Source: Octopus vulgaris (lineage: Eukaryota). Taken from it: DNA of 64,000 nucleotides. A model generated the notes under the pieces. That model was not told the origin of the DNA, ran no database searches, and worked only from the letters and a program-made list of their open reading frames with translations. The position numbers were made by a program, and so were the translations under genes. Of this stretch, positions 8,905 to 64,000 are shown in pieces. The stretch lies in contig OX597827.1 in assembly GCA_951406725.2 (NCBI GenBank), positions 79,670,001 to 79,734,000 of the forward strand, given 5' to 3'. Positions within the stretch are counted from its first letter, which is position 1. Each line of letters starts with the position of its first letter.

Positions 8905-10712
8905 AATTTCTGTAAAAGTTTTTTTATTTCTTTATGCTTTAAAGAGAGCAGAAATTGAAAGAGAAGAGAAAGTGAAAAAGCAACACTTGCTTTGGAGTGA
9001 GAGCTGAAAGTGAAAGATAGGAGAAAGTGAAAGATGTATGTACGTGTATATGAAATGGATGTGTGTGAGGGAGAGACAGAGAGTAAGTGAAGGTGTGTGT
9101 GTTGTCATGTATGTACTTTTGTATGTATAAGTAGCACTCACTCTCTCTTTCTTTCTCTCTCTCTCCCTCTCGCACACATTACCTTTCATATACACGTACA
9201 TAAATACATATGCATACATGTTTTTTGTATGTATGTGTGCATGTAAAAGAGAAAGTGAGTGACTCATCATATAGAGAAATGGATGTCTTTTAAGGTACAC
9301 TCATACAGAAAATGTGACGTCATCGTCATCATGGTATAAGATATTGTTAGTTAGTTAGTTAGTTAATTTGGCTCAAAAGGAAATAGCAAGGCCATGTAGG
9401 GGGACATGGAGTTAAGTACAGGGTGGTGTTCATGTAAAGAGTTCAGGCCACTTGAGGTCCAGGGAGGCTTTGAACAAAGCGGTCGTCGGCATCTTCACCA
9501 TCTCGTCTGGCAGCTTGTTCCACGGATCCGCAACCCGGACGGAGAAAGCTCCTCTCCTTCGATTGAGATGAAATCGTCGCAGGTAGAGCTTTTCGGAATG
9601 ACCCCGCAGCCGACGCTCCGGAGCAGGAGTGAAGAACAGCTCTTTCGAGAGGTTACACTTCCCGCTTATGATGTTGTGGGCGAGAATGAGATCACCACGG
9701 CGGCGGCGTTTTTCAAGAGAATAAAGGTCGAGCGTCCTCAGCCTTTCTTCGTAGGACAAATTTTTGAGACCATGAACCATGCGGGTAGCCAGCCTCTGGA
9801 CTCTTTCGAGATGCTGTATGTCTTTGAGGAGATAAGGAGAAGAGGCTTGAATCCCATACTCCAATATGGGTCTCACCAGCGTGACATAGAGTGGTAGGAA
9901 TATGGCTGCTGTGAGCATTCCGAATGACCGTCGAATCAAAAACAGAATTCCGCGCGCTTTGTTGGCAGCATGGACGCACTGGGCCGAAGGCGAAAAGGAG
10001 GAATCCACCAAGATACCCAGGTCCTTTACCTGATCGGTCCTCTCCAGCAGCAGATTGTTTAGGATAGTTGAATCATAGAAAGATTATAATGTTAAATTTT
10101 TGTAATGTAAATGTGTAAATGAGAATAAAGTTTATTTATTAGCTGAATGATTACTGAATCTTTTGATACCCCATATATCAAAATCAGGAACTCAGTTTTT
10201 GAATGTATTTGTGAATTTCTGTAATTTTTTTATTTCTTTATGCTTTGAAAAGAGCAGAAGTTGAAAGAAAAAGTGCAAGATGTATATACATGTATATGAA
10301 ATGGATGTGTGTGTGCATGTCCGTGAGAGAGAAGGAGAGAGTGAGTGAAGATGTGTGGCACTCGGTCACTCACTCTCTCTCTCACACACGCACACACACC
10401 TTTCATATACATTTTACATGCATCTTTTTGCATGTATGTGTGCATGTGAGAGAGAGTGAGTGTCTGTATTTCATCATAACATTTAGAGAAATGGATGTGT
10501 TTTAAGGTACATGTGCATATAGAAAGTGTGACATCATTGTTGTTGTCATTGTGGTATAAAATGTTTACAATAGTTGACTTATAGAAAAGATTATAACGTG
10601 AAACTTTTGTAATGCAAATATGTAAATGAAAATAAACTTTATTTGGTAATTGTGAGATTACTGGTTCTTTTGATAACCCATACGTCAAAATCGGCAGCTC
10701 AGTTTCTGAATA
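8905..10712. repeat. Diverged tandem duplication of a ~500-600 bp unit; the first unit is interrupted by a CR1-like LINE
   Basis: Units start aatttctgtaa...tatttctttatgcttt at 8905 and 10214 and share ordered blocks (atatgaaatggatgtgtgtg, agagaaatggatgt, ccata..tcaaaatc.g.a.ctcagttt). Confidence 0.8.
9346..10052 (-). mobile_element. 5'-truncated CR1-like LINE (RT C-terminus, 3'UTR, (AACT)n tail)
   Basis: ORF 9430-10011 has LYVTLVRPILEY, ERVQRLATRMV, YEERLRTLDLYSLEKRRRRGDLI and WNKLP. The tail reads (ttag)n on +. Probable TSD attgtt at 9343-9348 and 10054-10059. Confidence 0.93.
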
Positions 10713-18195: not shown

Positions 18196-20027
18196 ATCAT
18201 CATCATCATCATCATCATCATCATCGTTTAACATCCGCTTTCCATGCTAGCATAGGTTGGACGATTTGACTGATGACTAGCAAACCAGATGGCTGTAGCA
18301 GGTACCAATCTGATCTGGCAGAGTTTCTAAAGCTGGATGTCCTTCATAATGCTATGCACTCTGAGAGTGTAGTGGGTACTTTTACATGCCACTGGCATGA
18401 GGACCAGTCAGGCAGTACTGGCAATGGCCACATTCAAATGGGGTTTTTTACATGCCACCTGCACAGGAACCAATCCAGTGGAACTGGCAACAACCTCGAT
18501 CAAATGTTTTTTCATGTGCTACTGGCATGGAAGCCAGTCAGCTGCTCTTGCAACGATCACACTCACATGGTGCTCTTAGCGCTCCACTGGTCTTAACAGG
18601 CCTTCGCAAGCAGAGTTTAGTGTCCAATGAAGGAAAGATATGCATAAGTGGGCTGGTTACACCCCTGGCATAGGCCACGGGTTATGGTCTCACTTGGCTT
18701 GTCGGGTCTTCTCGTGCACTGCATATTTCCAAAGGTCTAGGTCACTACTCATTGCCTTGGTGAAGCCTAAAGTTCGAAGGTCATGCTTCACCACCTCATC
18801 CCAGGACTTCCTTGGTCTACATCTTCCACAGGTTCCCTCAACTGCTCGGATTTGGCATTTTTCACACAGCTGTCCTCCTCCATTCTCGTCACATGACCAT
18901 ACCAGCGCAGTCATCTCTCTTGCACCCCACATCTGATGCTTCTTAGGTCCAACTTTTTTCTCAAGGTACTTACACACTGTTGAGTATGCACACCGATATT
19001 ACACATCCAGTGGAGCATACTAGCTTCATTCCTTGTGAACTTACACATGTCCTCAGCAGTCATGGCCCATGTTTCACTGCCATGTAGTATGGCTGTTCCT
19101 ACACATGCATCATACAGTCTACCTTTTACTCTGAGCAAGAGGCCCTTTGTCACCAGCAAAAGTAAGAGCTCTCTGAACTTTTCCCAGGCTATTCTTATTC
19201 TGGAAGCTACACTTTCCCCTGCTACTGACTTGGTCACCTACGTAATGGAAGCTATCAACTACTTCTAGTTTTTCTCCCTGGAATGTGGCGGAAGTTGTTC
19301 TCTGCACATTTTCAGTGTTTATTGTTCCTGAGCATCTGCCACATAGAAAAACTATCTTCCCATTTAGCCTTCCTTTGACATTGCTGCACCTCTTATGTGT
19401 CCATAGCTTACACTGGATACATCTTATAGAGTTTCTACCTATGTCTTTTCTACAGATCGAGCAGAGCCATATACCTGAAGGGATTTGTGGTTTGTCTGCC
19501 TTCCTACTTATTAGGACTTTTGTTTTAGCTATATTGACTCTAAGGCCCTTCAATTCTAATCCTTGTTTCCACACTTGAAACTTCTCCTCAAGTTCTGATT
19601 GTGACTCAGCAATAAGAGCAAGGTCGTCAGCATAGAGGAGCTCCCAGAGGCATCCTGTCTTGAATTCCTCTGTTATTGCCTGGAGGACTATGATAAATAG
19701 GAGGGGGCTGAGGACTGAACCTTGGTGGACCTCTACCCACAATTCTTCACCGTACTCATTGTCAACCCTCACCTTACTAACAGCATCTCTGTACATGGCT
19801 TGCACAGCTCTCACTAACCATTCATCTATCCCTAGTTTCCTCATTGACCACCAGATAAAGGATTGGGGGACCCTGTCAGAAGCTTTCTCCATGTCAACAA
19901 AAGCTAGTTACAGAGGTTTATCTTTGGCTAGGTATTTCTCCTACAGCTGTCTTACCAGAAATATATCATCTGTGGTGCTTTTCCCTGGCATGAACCCAAA
20001 CTGCATCTCATCTAAACTGACTCTCTC
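18196..20027 (-). mobile_element. 5'-truncated, frameshifted RTE LINE (PHD-containing RT) with 3'UTR array and (GAT)n tail
   Basis: ORFs contain HQGSVLSPLLF, LLYADDL, KTKV, CSIC..CIQC..H..C..CGRC, LHGSETW and GRCRPRKSWDEVVKHDL. Confidence 0.93.
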
Positions 20028-38290: not shown

Positions 38291-41071
38291 TCATCATCAT
38301 CATCATCATCGTTTAACGTCCGCTTTCCATGCTAGCATGGGTTGGACGGTTCAACTGGGGTCTGGGGAGCCCAAAGGCTGCACCAGACCAGTCAGATCTG
38401 GCAGTGTTTCTACAGCTGGATGCCCTTCCTAACGCCAACCACTCCGAGAGTGTAGTGGGTGATTTTATGTGCCACCGACACAGGTGCCAGACGAGGCTGG
38501 CGAACGGCCACGCTCGGATGGTGTTTATGTGCCACCGACACAGGTGCCAGACGAGGCTGGCAGACGGCCACGCTCGGATGGTGTTTTTTATGTGCCACCA
38601 ACACAGATGCCAGACGAGGCTGGCGAACGGCCACGATCGGATGGTGTTTGTTACGTGCCCACAGCACAGAGGCCAGTCGATGCGGTACTGGCTACGGCCA
38701 CGTTCGGATGGTTTTCTTATGTGCCACCGGCACTGGTACCACAAAGATACAAATTCCATTGATGTTCATCTATTTTGAATTGGTTTGATTTTCACTTGCC
38801 TCAACAGGTCTTCACAAGTGTCACAAGAAGGAAGGTATGCACAGGTGGACTGACTACGTCCCAGGTAGGGGCACGGGTTATGGCCTCACTAGTCTTGCCG
38901 GGTCTTCTCACGCACAGCATACTTCCATAGGTCTCGGTCACTAGTCATTTCCTTGCTGAGACCTAAAGTTCGAAGGTCGTGCTTCACCACCTCGTCCCAG
39001 GTTTTCCTGGGTCTACCTCTTCCACAGGTTCCCTCAACTGCTAGGGTGTAGCACTTTTGCACACAACTATCTTCAGCCATTTTCGTCACATGACCATACC
39101 AGCGCAGCCGTCTCTCTTGCACACCACAACTGATGCTTCTTAGGTTCAACTTTTCTCTCAAGGTACTTACACTCTGTCGATTATGAACACTGACATTACA
39201 CATCCATCGGAGCATACTGGCTTCATTTCTTGCGAGCTTACGCATATCCTCAGCAGTCACGGCCCATGTTTCACTACCATGTAGCATGGCTTTGCGTACA
39301 CATGCATCATACAGTCTGCCTTTTACTCTGAGCGAGAGGCCTTTTGTCACCAGCAGGGGTAAGAGCTCTCTAAACTTTGCCCAGGCTATTCTTACTCTAG
39401 CAGTTACACTTTCAGCACACCCACCCCCGCTACTGACTTGGTCACCTAGGTAGCGGAAGCTATCAACTACTTCTAGTTTTTCTTCCTGGAACATGGTAGA
39501 CGTTGGTCTCTGCACATTTTCAGTGTTTATTGCTCCTGAGCATCTGCCACAGACAAAAACTATTTTCCTAGTTAGCCTTCCTTTGACATTGCTACACCTC
39601 TTATGTGTCCATAGCTTGCACTTGGTGCACCTTATAGAGTTTCTACCTACACCTTTTTTACAGATCGAGCAGGGCCATCTACCTGAAGGCGTTTGTGACT
39701 TGTCTACTTTCCTACTTATTAGGACTTTGGTTTTGGCTAGATTGATTCTGAGGCCCTTCGATTCTAGACCTTGCTTCCACACCTGAAACTTCTCTTCCAG
39801 TTCTGATAGTGACTCAGCAATTAGAGCAAGGTCATTAGCATAGAGGAGCTCCCAGGGGCATCCTGTCTTGAATTCCTCCGTTATTGCCTGGAGGACTATG
39901 ATAAATAGGAGGGGACTGAGGACTGAACCTTGGTGGACCCCAACCTCTACCCGGAATTCTTCACTGTACTCGTTGCCAACCCTCACCTTACTAGCAGCGT
40001 CTCTGTACATGGCTCGCACAGCTCTCACTAACCATTCATCTATCCCTAATTTCCTCATTGACCACCAGATAAGGGATCGGGGGACCCTGTCAAAGGCTTT
40101 CTCCATGTCAACAAAAGCCAGGTACAAGGGCTTATCTTTGGCTTGGTATTTCTCCTGCAGCTGTCTTACCAGGAATATAGCATCAGTAGTACTTTTCCCT
40201 GGCACGAACCCAAACTGCATCTCATCTAAGCTAACTCTCTCTCTAATTAATTGGGCTATAACCCTCTCCGTAACCTTCATTACCTGATCCAGCAGCTTGA
40301 TTCCCCTCGTAGTTATTTGTATCTAGGGCGTCACCTTTACCTTTGTAGCAGTTGACTATTATGCTGCTACACCAGTCATTGGGTATGACTCCTTCGTGTA
40401 TCACCTGGTTAACTATACGGGTGACTATGCTATAGCCGACACTACCAGATATTTTGACCATCTCTGCAGTAATTCCTGATGGGCCTGGGGCTTTCCCTGT
40501 TTTCATGCTTGTAATTGCCTTAACTACTAAGGAACTGTTAAATCGGATTGCTGGTCCCTCTGTTGGGTCGACATTCGGCAGACTCTCTTTATCCCATTCA
40601 TTTTCCTCATTCAGCAACCTTTCATAGTGGCGTCTCCAAGCCTCTCTCTTTGCATCCTCATTTAGCGCAAGTGAACCGTCATCCTTGCGAACACATTTCT
40701 CTCCTACCACGTCACGATTCTCTCTCACACACTGTCTAGCAACACGAAATACCTCAAGTCTTTCATCCTCACGGCGCAGGACATTGGCAAATTTTTTCTT
40801 ATCTGCTTCCCCTCTGGCTAGATAGACCTGTCTCCTAGCTTCTCTTCTGGCAGTCTGATACACTTCCCTGCTACCACCGTTCTTCCAGGCCTTCCAAGCC
40901 TGTTTCTTTTGTCTAATAGCCCTGTCAACAATATTGTTCCACCACCACATTACCTTAGGTCGAGAGGGGACTTTGCACCAGCCACAGATCTGGTCAGTGG
41001 CTTTCAGCAGGTTGTCCCTCAGAAGCGTCTAGTTGTCTTCTACCCCATGCGTAGCTATAACCCCTTCCGAC
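38291..41071 (-). mobile_element. Longest RTE LINE copy (2.8 kb, 5'-truncated, no endonuclease; one frameshift; YADD changed to YAND)
   Basis: ORFs 40243-40950 and 38889-40280: MKTGKAPGPSG, QFGFVPGKST, FVDMEKAFDRV, GVHQGSVLSPLLF, LLYAND, FRYLG, RLRWYGHV, RGRPRKTW. The 3'UTR array and (GAT)n tail follow. Confidence 0.95.
38456..38736 (-). repeat. Tandem ~58-65 nt structured modules (4-5 copies) in the RTE 3'UTR
   Basis: Unit on + strand: tttatgtgccaccgacacaggtgccagacgaggctggcgaacggccacgctcggatggtg. Confidence 0.92.
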
Positions 41072-42260
41072 ATGGCAGACTGAAAAACTTTTGAAAAGTG
41101 CTGGTGACTTATGGATGTCCTGAAAAACTTGTTAACAGCATCAAGCAGTTCCTCCCAGGAATGAAAGGGCTAGTCTCAGGTGATTGAGGATTTAGTAAAG
41201 CATTACAGTTCATCACAGTGTGAAGCAGGGGTGCATACTTTCCCTTGCACTCTTCTCTCTTTACTTTGCAGCTGTGCATGACACTATGAGGGTCAATCTG
41301 CACAAGGGGTTTCCTTCTTTAACTTAGCTCGTCTTCATGCCTCCACCAAAATCAGAGGAATGTGTGTTAGGGAGCTGCTATACACAGATGACTCAGCTCT
41401 CATGGTTATCAGCATTGAGGATATCCAACACACTGTGGGGCAGTTTTTTTGTGCAGCTTGGTCTCAAAATCAACACTTTTAAGACTGAGCTGCTCTACTA
41501 GTCCCCCACCCACCAGATGTTCTAATAGATTGAGAGAGCCCAAGCCAGTGACAGAATATGGAGAACCCCTGAAGTACACCAAAGCCTTTACCTGTCTTAA
41601 CAGTGCAGTGACTTTTCAGACCTCAAAGTTGAGAGGTAAATACTGCATGTTGTAAAGGCTTTTGGCTCTCTTGAGTCTTTTGAGCTGTCATTACATCACC
41701 TACAACACAGAGATAAAGATGTACAGTGCTGCAGTGGTCCTTTGCCACCTCTACACCATGGAATGCATAGCACGCTTCTGCAGGCACATTAAGTTCCTGA
41801 TGCAAGTCTAACTTCATCATCTGTGCTCCATCTTGCATATCAGATGGCAGGATCACATTTCTGATGTTGAGGTCTTGTACTGCACTATTGCTGTTAGGCC
41901 CTCGGTATCCCATGTTTGCAGGAAAGGCAGTTTTCTATACTGAACTATGACAGGGAAGGAGAAGTCATAGTGGCCAGAGGTTTCAATACAGAGATATGCT
42001 GAAGAGACATATGAAAAACTTCTGTATTTCTCCCGACACTTGGGAGGAGAAGGCGCTGGTGAATGGTACAGATCACTGAAGCTCATAATTCCAGCCACTG
42101 AGGAGACACAAGAGAGAGAATATAAAAGATCCCCTGAGGAGCATCACTTCTTTGTTGGATCAAGTAACTTCACCTGCAACAGATGTCATCACTGCTGCAG
42201 AGCAAGGGCACACCATGTAGCCCCATGCAAGCCTGCTGAAGATAATTTCTGAACAGAACA
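41072..42260 (+). mobile_element. Decayed BovB-like RTE LINE
   Basis: YGCPEKLV, FNLARL...VRELLYTDDSAL (about 41320-41400) and a C-terminal TCNRCHHCC..H zinc-finger-like end. Confidence 0.75.
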
Positions 42261-48084: not shown

Positions 48085-49628
48085 TAGAGTCAATCTAGCT
48101 AAAACAAAAGTCCTAATAAGCAGGAAGGTAGACAAACCACAAATCCCTTCAGGTAGATGGCCCTGCTCGATCTGTAGAAAAGGCGTAGGTAGAAACTCTA
48201 TAAGATGTACCCAGTGTAAGCTATGGACACATAAGAGGTGCAGCAATGTCAAAGGAAGGCTAACTGGGAAGATAGTTTTTCTATGTGGCAGATGCTCAGG
48301 AACAATAAACACTGAAAATCTGCAGAAAACAACTTCCGTCACTTTCCAAGGGGAGAAACTAGAAGTGGTTGATAGCTTCCATTACCTAGGGGACCAAGTC
48401 AGTAGTGGGGGTGGGTGCGCTGAAAGTGTAACTGCTAGAATAAGAATAGCCTGGGCAAAGTTTAGGGAGCTCTTACCTCTGCTGGTGACTAAAGGCCTCT
48501 CGCTCAGATTAAAAGGCAGACTGTATGACGCATGTGTACGAACAGCCATGCTACATGGCAGTAAAACATGGGCCATGACTGCTGAGGACATGTGTAAGCT
48601 CACAAGGAATGAAGGCAGTATATACACTGTAATGTCAGTGTACATACTCGACAGAGTGTAAGTACCTTGAGAGAAAAGTTGGACCTAAGAAGCATCAGTT
48701 GTGGTGTGCAAGAGAGACGTTTGCGCTGGTATGGTCATGTGGCGAGAATGGATGAAGATAGGTGTGTGAAAAAGTGCCAATCCCTAGTGGTTGAGGGAAC
48801 CCGTGGAAGAGGTAGACCCAGGAAAACCTGGGACGAGGTGGTGAAGCACAACCTTCGAACATTAGGCCTCACCGAGGCAATGACTAGTGATTGAGACCTT
48901 TGGAAATATGCTGTGCGTAAGAAGACCCGGCAGGACAAGTGAGTCCATCCCGTGTCCCTTGCCAGGGATGTAGCCAACCCACTTATGCATGCCTTTCCTT
49001 CCTTGGACACTTGAAGACCTGTTGAGGCAAGTGAAGCTGAAGTTGAATTTGAAATCGAACCTCATCCGACGACTGGCACCCATGCCAACCTCCCTTCATT
49101 GGACACTAAACTCTGCTTGTGAAGACCTGTTGGGGCAAATCGGAATTGAAATTGAACCAATCCTATGACTGGCACCCGGCAGTTGCCAGTGCCGCTGGAC
49201 TGACTCCTGTGCAGGTGCAGGTAAAGAAACACTGTTTCGACCCTGTGCTTGAGGAGACCTATTGAGTCAAGTACACCAACATCAAAAATCAATGGAAATT
49301 GTAGATGTGATCCCTGTGCCAGTGGCACGTAAAAAGCACCATCCGAACGTGGCCGATGCCAGCACTGCCTTGACTGGCTTCCGTGCCGGTGGCACGTAAA
49401 AAACACCAGTCTGATCGTAGCTGTTGTCAGCCTTGCCTGGCACCTGTGCCAATGGAATGTAAAAAGCACCCACTATACTCACGGAGAGGTCGGCGTTAGG
49501 AAGGGCATCCAGCTGTAGAAACACTGCCAGATCAGACTGGAGCCTGGTGCAGCCTCCTGGCTTCCCAGATCCCGGTCGAACCGTCCAACCCATGCTAGCA
49601 TGGAGAACGGTCGTTAAACGACGATGAT
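48085..49628 (+). mobile_element. 5'-truncated RTE LINE (PHD plus thumb, long 3'UTR, module array, GAT tail)
   Basis: ORFs 48020-48661 and 48667-48894 are highly similar to the 38889-40280 ORF; modules at 49312-49471. Confidence 0.93.
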
Positions 49629-49641
49629 GGTATATTATATA

Positions 49642-53685: not shown

Positions 53686-54090
53686 TAACAATCTATATAA
53701 TAATCTGCTTGTTCATTCACCCTTTATACTTTAGTTAGTTGTGGAGGTGGAGTGAAAGAGCGAGAGAGGGGAGGAGTATGTGTAGAAAAGAAAGAAGTGA
53801 GGAAGAAGTAGAGAAAGATGTATAAGGCCAAATGTGTCATGTGGCTAGTTAAAGGGTGTGGAGAAGAGCAAGAGAAAAAGATGGTGATAGAAAAGAGAGA
53901 GAGAGAAGTGTTAATGACATGCAGTAAGGTGGGGAGGGAAAGGTAAAGAGAAAGATGTATGTTTCAGATGGTGATGTTCTGGTGGTGAGATTAAAGAAAG
54001 GCAGATAGAGAGAGATGGACAAGGGAGGCAGCTACATTGAGAGAGAGAGAGAGAAGCAGATAGTGTTTTTATTGTCAGAGTAGAGATACA

Positions 54091-55023
54091 TTCATAAATG
54101 ACTTGCCCGACGACCTCACGCAACACACCCTTCTATTTGCCGACGATGTCAAACTGGTCGCTCCTCGCGGTGATATAGAGGATCTTCGTCGATGCCTCCA
54201 CCAAATTTGGAGGTGGTCTAACGAATGGGACCTGTGTCTGAACATGTCAAACTGCTGTCATCTGCCTGTTGGCTCTCCTCCTGAAACTCAACTTGATTTC
54301 GAGCCGGGTCGTTTGCTGCTGGAGAGGACCGATCAGGTAAAGGACCTGGGTATCTTGGTGGATTCCTCCTTTTTGCCTTCGGCCCAGTGCGTCCATGCTG
54401 CCAACAAAGCACGCGGAATTCTGTTCTTGATTCGACGGTCATTCGGAATGCTCACAGCAGCCATATTCCTACCACTCTATGTCACGCTGGTGAGACCCAT
54501 ATTGGAGTACGGGATTCAAGCCTCTTCTCCTTATCTCCTCAAAGACATACAGCATCTCGAAAGAGTCCAAAGCTGGCTACCCGCATGGTTCATGGTCTCA
54601 AAAATTTGTCTTATGAAGAAAGGCTGAGGACGCTCGACCTTTATTCTCTAGAAAAACGCCGCCGCCGTGGTGATCTCATTCTCGCTCACAACATCATAAG
54701 CGGAAAGTGTAACCTCTTGAAAGAGCTGTTCTTCACTCCTGCTCCAGAGCGTCGGCTGCAGGGTCATTCCGAAAAGCTCTACCTGCGACGATTTCATCTC
54801 AATCGAAGGAGAGGAGCTTTCTCCGTCCGGGTTGCGGATCCATGGAACAAGCTGCCAGACGAGATGGTGAAGATGCCAACGACCGCTTTGTTCAAAGTCT
54901 CCCTGGACCTCAAGTGGCCTGAACTCTTTACATGAACACCACCCTGTACTTAACTCCATGTCCCCCTACATGGCCTTGCTATTTGCTTTTGAGCCAAATT
55001 AACTAACTAACTAACTAACTAAC
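54091..55023 (+). mobile_element. 5'-truncated CR1-like LINE, same young family as 9346-10052
   Basis: FINDLPDDL..LLFADDVKL, VKDLGILVD; one frameshift near 54570; (AACT)n tail; possible TSD acatt (54088-54092 and 55022-55026). Confidence 0.94.
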
Positions 55024-56164
55024 ATTGACAGCAAGAAAAATTAAATATACAGCTGAACTGAAATGAAATGAAATGAAATGAGCTTTGTTACTGAAAACTA
55101 TAATGATGATGATGATGATGGTAGTGGTTATGGTGTGTTGATGGTGAAAATAATTTATTTTTTCTATCGAATGAAATCTCACACTTTATGCTTTAGTTTG
55201 TTAGGGAGGAGGGGGAGGTGGCATGAAAGAGAGGAAGAAGGGATGTGAGAGTGAGTGAGGGAGTAGAAAACCAGGGGATGCATTGTGCTGGCACTCCTGT
55301 GGTTAGTGGAGAGGGAAAGAGGGGAGGGGAAGAGAGACATGTTAAAGACATGAAGAGGCAAATTCCATGGTTAAAGAGTTTGTTGAAGAGAAAGAGAGAA
55401 ATATAAAGTGCTTAGCTGAGGGAAATTTTAAGAGTCATATTATAATATATATTATTGTGACGAGAAGTGAAATAACTTAGCAAAATAAAAATGCAAATCA
55501 TCCTTTCTTTCTTAAATGGCTTGTCTTAATCCTTTTCGTTCTGTGGAATTTCTACGGGTCTCACTAGTTGTAAAGGAACCTTTTACTGATGCAGTAGTTT
55601 TTTTGATTTGTCTCTTATGTTCTTACTAGTTTTTACTTTTTAAATATTAAAATAAAAGAAACTTTTATAAGAAATTCCAACTTAAGAAGTTCCAACTTAT
55701 AAGATTAATAAAAGAAAAGTTGCTTAGTCAGAGTCAATTATTAAACTAATTGCAGAAAAAGCCATTGGACAAAATCTTTTTTATTTTCATCAATATATTA
55801 GTCACCTCTTACATTATATACTACAAAATGTTGCATTATGCTGGCGAGATATAGTGAAGAGCCACAGAGCTCTTTATGCAGGACACAGTTTTTAACTTCG
55901 ATCCCAGCTTTAACAAAGTAAATGATATTTAATTAATATTTATGCTTCATGTCTTTGAGAATATTTTAGTTATTTAATTTTGTGTTCATTCAATCTCATA
56001 TACCTTGTAGAAATAGATTCTGTGCAGATGCATTTATGTGGATGTATGTGTGTGTGTATATATATATATGTGTGTGTGTGTGTGCATGTGTATGAGGAAC
56101 AAAGAGAAGAAAAAAGAAAATATAAAAAAGAAAAAAAGATAAAATGTAAATACAAAAAAGAAAA

Positions 56165-62272: not shown

Positions 62273-62859
62273 CTCCCTCTCTCTCTCTCTCTCTCTCTGC
62301 GCGTGCGCCCGCGAGTCCTTCCCTCCCTCCCTCCCTCCCTCCCTCCCTTCCTTCCTTCCTTCCTTCCACACATACAGGCTTGTCCTTTCAGGTGCTGGTT
62401 AAAAAAGCATTCATGCCGGTGCTGCATAAAGGTACCTATGTTGGCTAAATTAAGTCTTCTTCCAGTGCAGACAGCTGGTTGGTTGGTTGGTTGGTTGGTC
62501 CAGAACGAAACAACATGGAGGCAACAGCAGCGTTACAGTTCTTCACCAAATGCTGGTCTCTTACAAAGCATTGTATCCAAGATTGTTAATATATCCTCAA
62601 TAAATCTATTTCCATCTTATGATTGTGAAAGTAAAAAGTATGGAGGGAGCTAAGTGACTTGATATTTACTGTTTGTTCAAGGAGATTTGGAAGCTATCTC
62701 TATCTGGTCGAGTCACCACTCTTTTTCAATTTTTATGAACCAATATCAAGCAGTACAAAATGTTGCATTAAAATAATTCACTTACTTTTACAACTTTTTA
62801 TCTTACAAATGTTTAAAAGTTATTTCATCATTGATTTAGCTTAGTCAACCAAATATTCA

Positions 62860-64000
62860 CACTGCAGTGGGTTTTCAAGAAACCATGGTTGTATTGTCAA
62901 GAGGTGTACGCTTGCTTTGTTGACCTCAAAAGGGCATACAACTGCATTCCACAGGACTTGTTGTGGAAGGTTCTGCAGGAGGATGGGATTGAGGGACTGC
63001 TTCTTGTCGTCTTCAAGTTCCTACATATATGTCCTAGTATTTGTGTTTGGATAAATGTTGCCAAGTTGTAATCATTCAATATGGATGTTGGACTCTGCTA
63101 AGCGTGTGTACTGTCACCTCCCCTGTTCATAATCTTTATGGACAGGATTGACATGCACAGCCAGGTTGGAATCAGTATCAAGACTGGCAGATGTAGGATC
63201 AGGTGGCTAGAATTTGCAGATGCATGGTACCACTCAGTTCATTGGGAGGTGGTTGCCAATGTGCACATTAGAAGTTTCCTACCAAGTGCTGCTCAGCAGG
63301 AATGAATATTAGTATTCTCAAGACTGAGACACTCATCTTCTCAAAGAAGCCTGCTTAATGTACTCTTACATGTGAGTGGAGTTGCACTGAAGCAGGTGGG
63401 GAAGTTCAAGTGTCTTGGGGTCATCTTCATGAATGATGGAAGACAGGAGGACGAATTAGGTGCAGTAATGGTGCCAGTTCAACATTCGGTCATCAGAAGA
63501 TGGGATTTAGATGTAAAAATCAAACTCGCTATCTTCAATTCGGTATTTGTACCTACCCCTACCTTTGGTCATGAATCTTGGGTAATGCCTGAAAGACTAC
63601 GATTGCATATAGAAGCAAGATGGGGATTTCCACCCAACAAAGGGTTGTTGAAGTAACAGTAATCAATAAAGTGCATAGCTTGGAGATCAGAGAGGCACTC
63701 CAGATAGAGCCACCACTTATCTGAATTGAAAGGTCACAGCTTTGATGTTACAACATGTAAAAATTACTCTGGAATGCATTTCTGAATAAGTATTATGGGC
63801 AAAACCAAACAGCAAGAGACCCCCCAGGGGTAGAGAACAAACTTAATGATTGGATGACATTCATGAGCTTGGTTGGTCTCACTTGGGAATCCAGCCAATC
63901 AATTGGGGACAATTGCTTTTGAGGGGACATGATGGAAGGCATGCTTGAGGACTCTGTCCCAGCGACCCTACCAGGATTAAATGGGCAAAGAAGATGAGAT
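62860..64000 (+). mobile_element. Decayed RTE LINE (Rex3/Expander-like)
   Basis: YACFVDLKRAY..LLWKVL, LSPPLFIIFMDRI, LKQVGKFKCLGVIF, FVPTPTFGHESWV; 3' end gcgaccct..ggatt..gaagatgagat. Confidence 0.8.

Follow-up and report, generated by a model that had tools for sequence, protein, structure and literature searches.

Two features that meet in the element described here are already known separately, namely PHD fingers in ORF1 of LINEs and a DNA-reading loop at the same site of the reverse transcriptase (RT). According to the accessible text of PMC4120745, LINEs of the CR1 and L2 lineages carry their PHD fingers in ORF1 or upstream of the endonuclease, the best structural matches of these fingers are the Pygopus structures 2vpb and 3zpv, and a general role of such fingers in targeting the host genome has been suggested. 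Nicking by R2Bm requires loop 6a (residues 672–677), a stretch between RT motifs 6 and 7 that recognizes upstream bases of the target (PMC10499050, in part). Vertebrate R2s are described as using loop 6a likewise (bioRxiv 2024.11.11.623112, in part), and it contacts upstream DNA in three R2 structures (the same excerpts of PMC10499050 and bioRxiv 2024.11.11.623112). Other RTEs (Bov-B, plant RTEs and the octopus RTE-2_OV) resemble the present element in having a single ORF with an AP endonuclease and an RT, and a microsatellite 3′ tail; they differ in that the accessible parts of PMC13295347 and PMC9115989 report no PHD finger for them, and RTE-2_OV is a protein of 1109 aa with a terminal C2H2 finger.

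The window analyzed here is a stretch of 64,000 nucleotides of Octopus vulgaris DNA (GCA_951406725.2, contig OX597827.1, positions 79,670,001 to 79,734,000). A first-pass annotation had placed a complete C4HC3 finger inside the RT of three RTE copies, between KTKV and YLG. We found the motif, C-x2-C-x10-C-x2-C-x4-H-x2-C-x14-C-x2-C, at all three places and between the two RT motifs (Table 1); a loose PHD pattern run over the six frames of the window gave these three matches only, and 0 of 100 shuffled windows matched it. The short linkers claimed for the two other RTE families were also confirmed: the motif-6 lysine and the motif-7 Phe are 276 nt apart in the 48 kb PHD copy but 106 nt apart in the RTE at 41 kb and 85 nt in that at 63 kb.

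Table 1. Positions within the window of the PHD-bearing RTE copies (PHD-RTE) and of the landmarks of their insert
Feature	Position	Strand	Basis
PHD finger core, C4HC3, copy 1	48164..48295	+	motif pattern, Pfam, fold model
Whole insert: variable N-linker, PHD and variable C-linker, flanked by RT motifs 6 and 7	48119..48334 (limits approximate)	+	
Aromatic residue at the second position before Cys1; in alignment the counterpart of the pocket-wall residue Y341 of Pygo1	48158..48160	+	
Trp at the second position before the His ligand; in alignment the counterpart of W366 of Pygo1	48224..48226	+	
RT motif 6 (KTKV)	48101..48112	+	
RT motif 7 (YLG)	48383..48391	+	
PHD-RTE copy 1: 5′-truncated, frameshifted, with 3′ UTR, then a short (GAT)n tail, then a TA/TG microsatellite	48085..49629	+	
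PHD finger core, copy 2	39540..39671	-	motif pattern, Pfam
PHD-RTE copy 2: 5′-truncated, YAND, frameshift near 40300	38291..41068	-	
PHD finger core, copy 3	19332..19463	-	motif pattern, Pfam
PHD-RTE copy 3: 5′-truncated, with stops	18206..20027	-	

All eight ligands are present in the three copies, as had been stated, but the copies are 87–88% identical in DNA and all dead, which makes this retention weak evidence. The 48 kb copy begins just upstream of motif 6, is without YADD and has a frameshift near 48630, while the other two carry the defects given in Table 1. The window also holds two old PHD-less RTE copies, at 41030–42100 (+) and 62800–64000 (+), presumably Bov-B-like and Rex3-like. 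Two copies of the 63 kb stretch, 96–97% identical, lie less than 3 Mb away on the same contig, which suggests local duplication.

In contrast to the three dead copies of the window, other members of the family are young and intact. Searching the genome returned 24,030 first-look candidates, a figure that is not a copy number; many of the best 150, which were scored, had open frames near 1040 codons. Ten copies with such frames were fetched, and all had a single ORF of 1038–1043 codons, with pairwise identities of 97–99.6%, and a 43-base stretch of the young 3′ end occurs exactly 804 times in the genome. The ORF encodes, in order, an AP endonuclease (EN), the RT, the PHD finger (within the RT, between motifs 6 and 7) and the thumb. 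EN and RT match L1 ORF2p, in an alignment that reaches residue 1062 of 1275 only. The young copies end in (GAT)n, a short-tandem-repeat 3′ tail as in RTE LINEs; the label RTE is that of the first-pass annotation, a putative assignment in line with what is generally known of these elements. The 5′ UTR of the young copies is built of repeated units, and the length of the 3′ UTR varies by a tandem block. The closest named protein comes from Octopus bimaculoides (83% identical over the region).

The genome has a second, old PHD-bearing RTE family with about 35–40% protein identity to the first and its own version of the finger. Public gene models of O. bimaculoides and of the catfish Neoarius graeffei fuse the frame of the element to host exons (a PF07766 protein, slc22a21 and a kinase-myosin); such fusions probably arose in annotation, from copies that lie in introns. 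One intact PHD-RTE has been assigned to the bin of a bacterial symbiont from a bivalve, probably as contaminating host DNA.

The C4HC3 motif is a PHD finger, as judged from Pfam and the predicted fold. PF00628 matched the window copies over all 47 profile positions with 26.1, 21.5, and 24.8 bits; the cut-off is 24 bits, so two of the three are above it and the third has 21.5. In the model of the whole protein (mean pLDDT 91.5), the finger had values of 87–94 and the two linkers 75 and 68, which would fit a folded module on a tether. The finger predicted alone (pLDDT 77) was submitted to two fold searches. In the VIA search, PHD was named in 42 of the best 50 rows, with a best Z of 5.9 (rmsd 2.8, 53 aligned), and Pygopus came first among the fold matches (3zpv, Z 5.9) with modest scores; Foldseek gave a best TM of 0.66 (2vpg, E 0.013) and no row with E ≤ 0.001. 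Fold searches with the whole protein were dominated by EN and RT matches and were uninformative on the finger. Both the Pfam comparison and the structure model favor the PHD assignment of the first-pass annotation, the latter as a predicted fold with modest scores. A RING finger was rejected: the His is the fifth ligand, not the fourth as in C3HC4, and the best RING-type Pfam score was 13.7 against a cut-off of 27.4. A C1 domain was also rejected, with a Pfam score under the cut-off. Given the invariance of the ligands described below, the finger probably binds two zinc ions.

Rather than a local oddity of the window, the insert proved to be the normal condition across a large RTE sub-lineage. 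A profile search found 775 proteins, the best 120 of which were listed. From 129 proteins we used 122, leaving out four PHD-less catfish proteins, two chimeric gene models and one truncated protein. These relatives are about 42–55% identical to the intact ORF, and not one of the eight ligands varies in any of the 122, so that the conservation across divergent families by which the first-pass annotation had proposed to judge the finger was found. The commonest ligand spacing, 2-10-2-4-2-14-2, occurs in 84 of the 122. To avoid selecting for the finger, the relatives were also ranked by the RT alone, and all eight ligands were present in 94 of the best 120; among the 26 misses, 19 belong to one PHD-less catfish family (about 45% identity) and 7 were broken or unparsed. 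The motif 6–7 span is 37 residues in the catfish family and about 101 in PHD-RTE, and therefore the insert measures about 64 residues; the loop is 97–108 residues long among the correctly parsed rows. A tree of the RT only split 43 PHD rows from 4 catfish rows with 100/100 support (4 rows were skipped), and with its one outgroup family it is compatible with a single gain of the insert, short of proving it. Among representatives at 50% identity there were 618 matches at E ≤ 1e-10, with all ligands in 103 of the best 150 listed. The named hosts among the relatives are one octopus and one catfish only; ten clusters that were looked up yielded no species. When the PHD-less catfish stretch was compared with the present genome, no PHD-less sister family appeared in the best 150 scored, and the 30 loci read were PHD-family copies.

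Mean column conservation was 0.65 in the finger, 0.62 in EN, and 0.71 in the RT, against 0.41 and 0.31 in the linkers. The pN/pS between subfamilies, another comparison that had been proposed, was 0.17 in the finger (three replacement and five silent changes, thus small counts), under the 0.33–0.62 of the linkers, with 0.07 in the RT. The three changes within the finger were all to K or R. In dead copies chosen by their downstream region, all eight ligands were found in one frame in 16 of 30, which indicates that the finger decays.

R2Bm is matched by the profile as far as its residue 671 (profile position 764), just past motif 6. Compared with the start of loop 6a, this places the PHD insert putatively in the same motif 6–7 loop, from the end-point of an alignment and not from a superposition. 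The two are alike as insertions between RT motifs 6 and 7 with the same aligned starting place and, by analogy, target DNA may pass this loop also in an element with an N-terminal endonuclease. Loop 6a differs in being short, in reading bases upstream of a fixed rDNA site and in being called unique to R2 (in the accessible parts of PMC10499050 and bioRxiv 2024.11.11.623112), whereas PHD-RTE has a zinc-finger module of about 64 residues, is dispersed and carries an N-terminal AP endonuclease. The geometry of the R2 endonuclease differs from that of PHD-RTE, and this weakens the equivalence with loop 6a.

In Pygo1, the K4me2 pocket has W366, Y341, and D352 as walls and V350 and A356 as floor, with acids around it; the binding face of Pygo is acidic, mutation of E360 abolished binding, and Pygo PHDs also bind BCL9 through the rear face (excerpts of PMC2726290). 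Pygopus was the best or a near-best match of the RTE finger in sequence and fold, and in the alignment to Pygo1 several positions are kept: Y/W/F/H at Y341 (117/122), V at V350 (112/122), S/A/C at A356 (122/122), I/V/L at I357 (121/122), W at W366 (120/122), and L at L382 (116/122). D352 and E360 are not, with D/E in only 6/122 and 4/122; both loops are shorter, and in contrast to the acidic Pygo face the net charge of the finger is +1 to +11 (median +6) across the 122 proteins, always positive. The W two residues before the His had been described as typical of PHDs. This did not hold as a general rule, since none of nine host PHD motifs examined in this genome has it (0/9); the fold therefore does not require the W, which points instead to a methyl-lysine pocket. 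Together, the aromatic residue, V, S/A, and W suggest that the finger retains a Pygopus-type methyl-lysine pocket with putative binding, although several of these may simply be core residues. As described in part of the review PMC3241642, readers of unmethylated H3K4 (BHC80/AIRE type) have an acidic cluster before Cys1 and no aromatic cage, the cage Trp is invariable in K4me3 readers, and two yeast PHDs prefer H3K36me3. A reader of the BHC80/AIRE type was rejected here: the RTE positions before Cys1 are mostly G, K/R, aromatic, and P, with no acidic cluster.

Copy placement was studied through the CpG content of the flanks. Flanks with CpG o/e <0.45 were counted as CpG-poor, simple repeats and elements were masked and flanks of <500 bases were dropped. 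Young PHD-RTE copies, sampled from two contigs only, had CpG-poor flanks in 55 of 67 cases (70 examined), and random sites in 20 of 39 (40 examined; p = 0.0016). The signal was first noticed post hoc, and further loci were fetched as a fresh set, which alone gave 30/38 (p = 0.017 vs. random). The two old PHD-less RTE families were like random (16/29 and 15/27; 31/56 in total); these controls are older than the young family and were chosen by their likeness to degenerate copies. The old PHD family, in which the motif was in one frame at only 2 of 30 loci, had 22/30 CpG-poor flanks, not significant by Fisher tests (p = 0.08 vs. random, 0.11 vs. PHD-less), with rank tests giving p = 0.019 and p = 0.017, respectively. 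The true unit of this comparison is the family, and it covers few of them: two of PHD-bearing RTEs, two of PHD-less RTEs and one CR1-like. PHD-RTE 3′-end fragments were present at 5 of 21 CpG-poor random sites and at 0 of 19 CpG-rich ones.

The CR1-like family (9430–10083 and 54064–55030 in the window) ends in a (TAAC)n tail, and its young 3′ end has 2237 exact occurrences. Its copies favor CpG-rich flanks, the reverse of PHD-RTE (CpG-poor in 15/69, 70 examined, against 20/39 for random; p = 0.0025), and the two LINEs seem to partition the genome. The window itself is CpG-poor throughout (o/e 0.16–0.26 in all eight 8-kb bins) and is likely an intron-rich gene body.

In the accessible text of PMC9476566, 5mC marks the bodies of highly expressed genes in O. 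bimaculoides. Host-gene exon loci were CpG-poor in 16 of 23 cases and histone loci in 0 of 12. From the exon loci and the octopus methylation pattern, the CpG-poor flanks are likely gene bodies. Targeting of CpG-rich promoters, as expected of a plain H3K4me3 reader, was rejected, as the flanks show the opposite. Targeting of TA microsatellites by the finger was rejected as well: (TA)4 was found at 9 of 30 junctions against a local background of 3.5%, but also at 3 of 30 CR1-like junctions (p = 0.10). TA repeats are rarer at CpG-poor random sites (0.9% vs. 3.9%), and a preference for TA therefore does not explain the CpG-poor bias. Other RTEs have a Tn-TA insertion signature (PMC13295347), which was not evident at PHD-RTE ends: A/T starts were common, and there was no T-tract at −10 in the 14 sites with a repeat of at least 7 bp among 40 examined, most of them microsatellites that blur the ends. 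Outside microsatellites the apparent target duplications are short, about 4–7 bp, and in many cases they overlap with the AT in the (GAT)n tail.

We consider it an even chance that the finger, held on a tether, reads nucleosomes and thereby steers insertion toward the bodies of transcribed genes. A conserved basic PHD on two variable linkers, in the RT motif 6–7 loop of a large RTE sub-lineage, would grip the nucleosome with methyl-lysine in the retained pocket and DNA on the basic face; this grip would hold the enzyme on chromatin and bias priming, and hence new copies, toward CpG-poor DNA, likely transcribed gene bodies. The identity, position, conservation, pocket residues and charge of the finger and the flank bias are the observations that this steering builds on; it further supposes that zinc and a methyl-lysine ligand are bound, that the flanks are gene bodies and that the finger causes the bias. 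The first-pass annotation had supposed that a chromatin- or nucleic-acid-reading module could steer integration; PHD identity, conservation and a non-random copy placement that fits steering stand, whereas the bound ligand and the causal role go further than these results. With the acids missing and CpG-rich DNA avoided, a gene-body mark (H3K36me or low-methyl H3K4) would fit better than promoter H3K4me3. A more specific form, which we hold as a tentative and somewhat doubtful proposal, is that the PHD recognizes both such a mark and nucleosomal DNA and thereby guides insertion into transcribed genes, as a self-encoded LINE counterpart of LEDGF-guided integration in an undescribed RTE sub-lineage; the motif 6–7 loop would then be a place at which non-LTR RTs in general can dock targeting modules. 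Against steering, the acids at the D352 and E360 positions are largely missing, although E360 is essential in Pygo; the CR1-like family has the opposite bias, although CR1/L2 elements often encode Pygo-like PHDs; and survival after insertion, the endonuclease or timing could give an equal bias.

The positive charge of every finger, and a site that in R2 contacts upstream DNA, agree with a rather unlikely alternative in which the finger serves solely to clamp nucleic acid. With its basic face and two aromatics it would hold target DNA or template RNA in TPRT, like loop 6a, and perhaps replace a missing C-terminal domain, as the end of the L1 ORF2p alignment at 1062 of 1275 may suggest. The PHD of yeast Hop1 touches nucleosomal DNA, but its loop contributes little affinity (both from part of bioRxiv 2023.03.04.531117); moreover, a clamp leaves the Pygo-type pocket with its small floor residue unexplained, and the (TA)4 counts give no sequence signature tied to the finger. 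That the finger instead serves to dock a host protein other than a histone, or packs against the enzyme itself, with the flank bias coming from the endonuclease, germline timing or copy survival, is in our judgment unlikely. BCL9 binding on the rear face of Pygo PHDs, the tightly kept loop length and the thin family-level replication of the bias speak for it; the variable linkers, with their lower predicted confidence, are unlike a packed subdomain, and both PHD families lean CpG-poor while neither PHD-less RTE does. A tolerated passenger with no function is highly improbable and already contradicted: PHD-less RTEs are successful and the finger decays in dead copies, but the ligands are invariant in all 122 divergent proteins and the pN/pS of the finger, small as the counts are, lies between those of the RT and the linkers.

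PHD-RTE shares with CR1/L2 elements a PHD in a LINE with Pygo chains among its best structural matches, which hints at a shared pool or donor as a plausible origin; it differs in being a single-ORF element whose finger splits the RT, at the point between motifs 6 and 7. Chromoviral chromodomains and the PWWP domain of LEDGF are methyl-lysine readers that tether integration machinery, and the proposed tethering logic is the same; those systems concern the integrases of LTR elements and retroviruses, and LEDGF is a host protein, whereas the reader of PHD-RTE is part of the LINE polymerase. The accessible portions of PMC9115989, PMC3849965, PMC3747384, PMC4120745, PMC12503042, PMC10124903, and PMC12365614, and the titles and abstract openings found in directed literature searches, contain no account of a PHD inside an RTE RT; Repbase, Dfam, subscription journals and supplements may describe one. 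Automatic Pfam labels already show the combination of RVT_1 and PHD.

The choice of landing sites by dispersed LINEs is largely an open question. The targeting role suggested for LINE PHDs, as worded in the accessible text of PMC4120745, becomes testable with this element, which has one ORF and numerous young copies, can be compared with PHD-less relatives and shows a placement bias that can be measured. A natural and long-kept graft site in a TPRT polymerase is also relevant to gene insertion tools based on retrotransposons. For the octopus, a family with more than 800 very young ends that favors likely gene bodies would shape the intron content of the genome.
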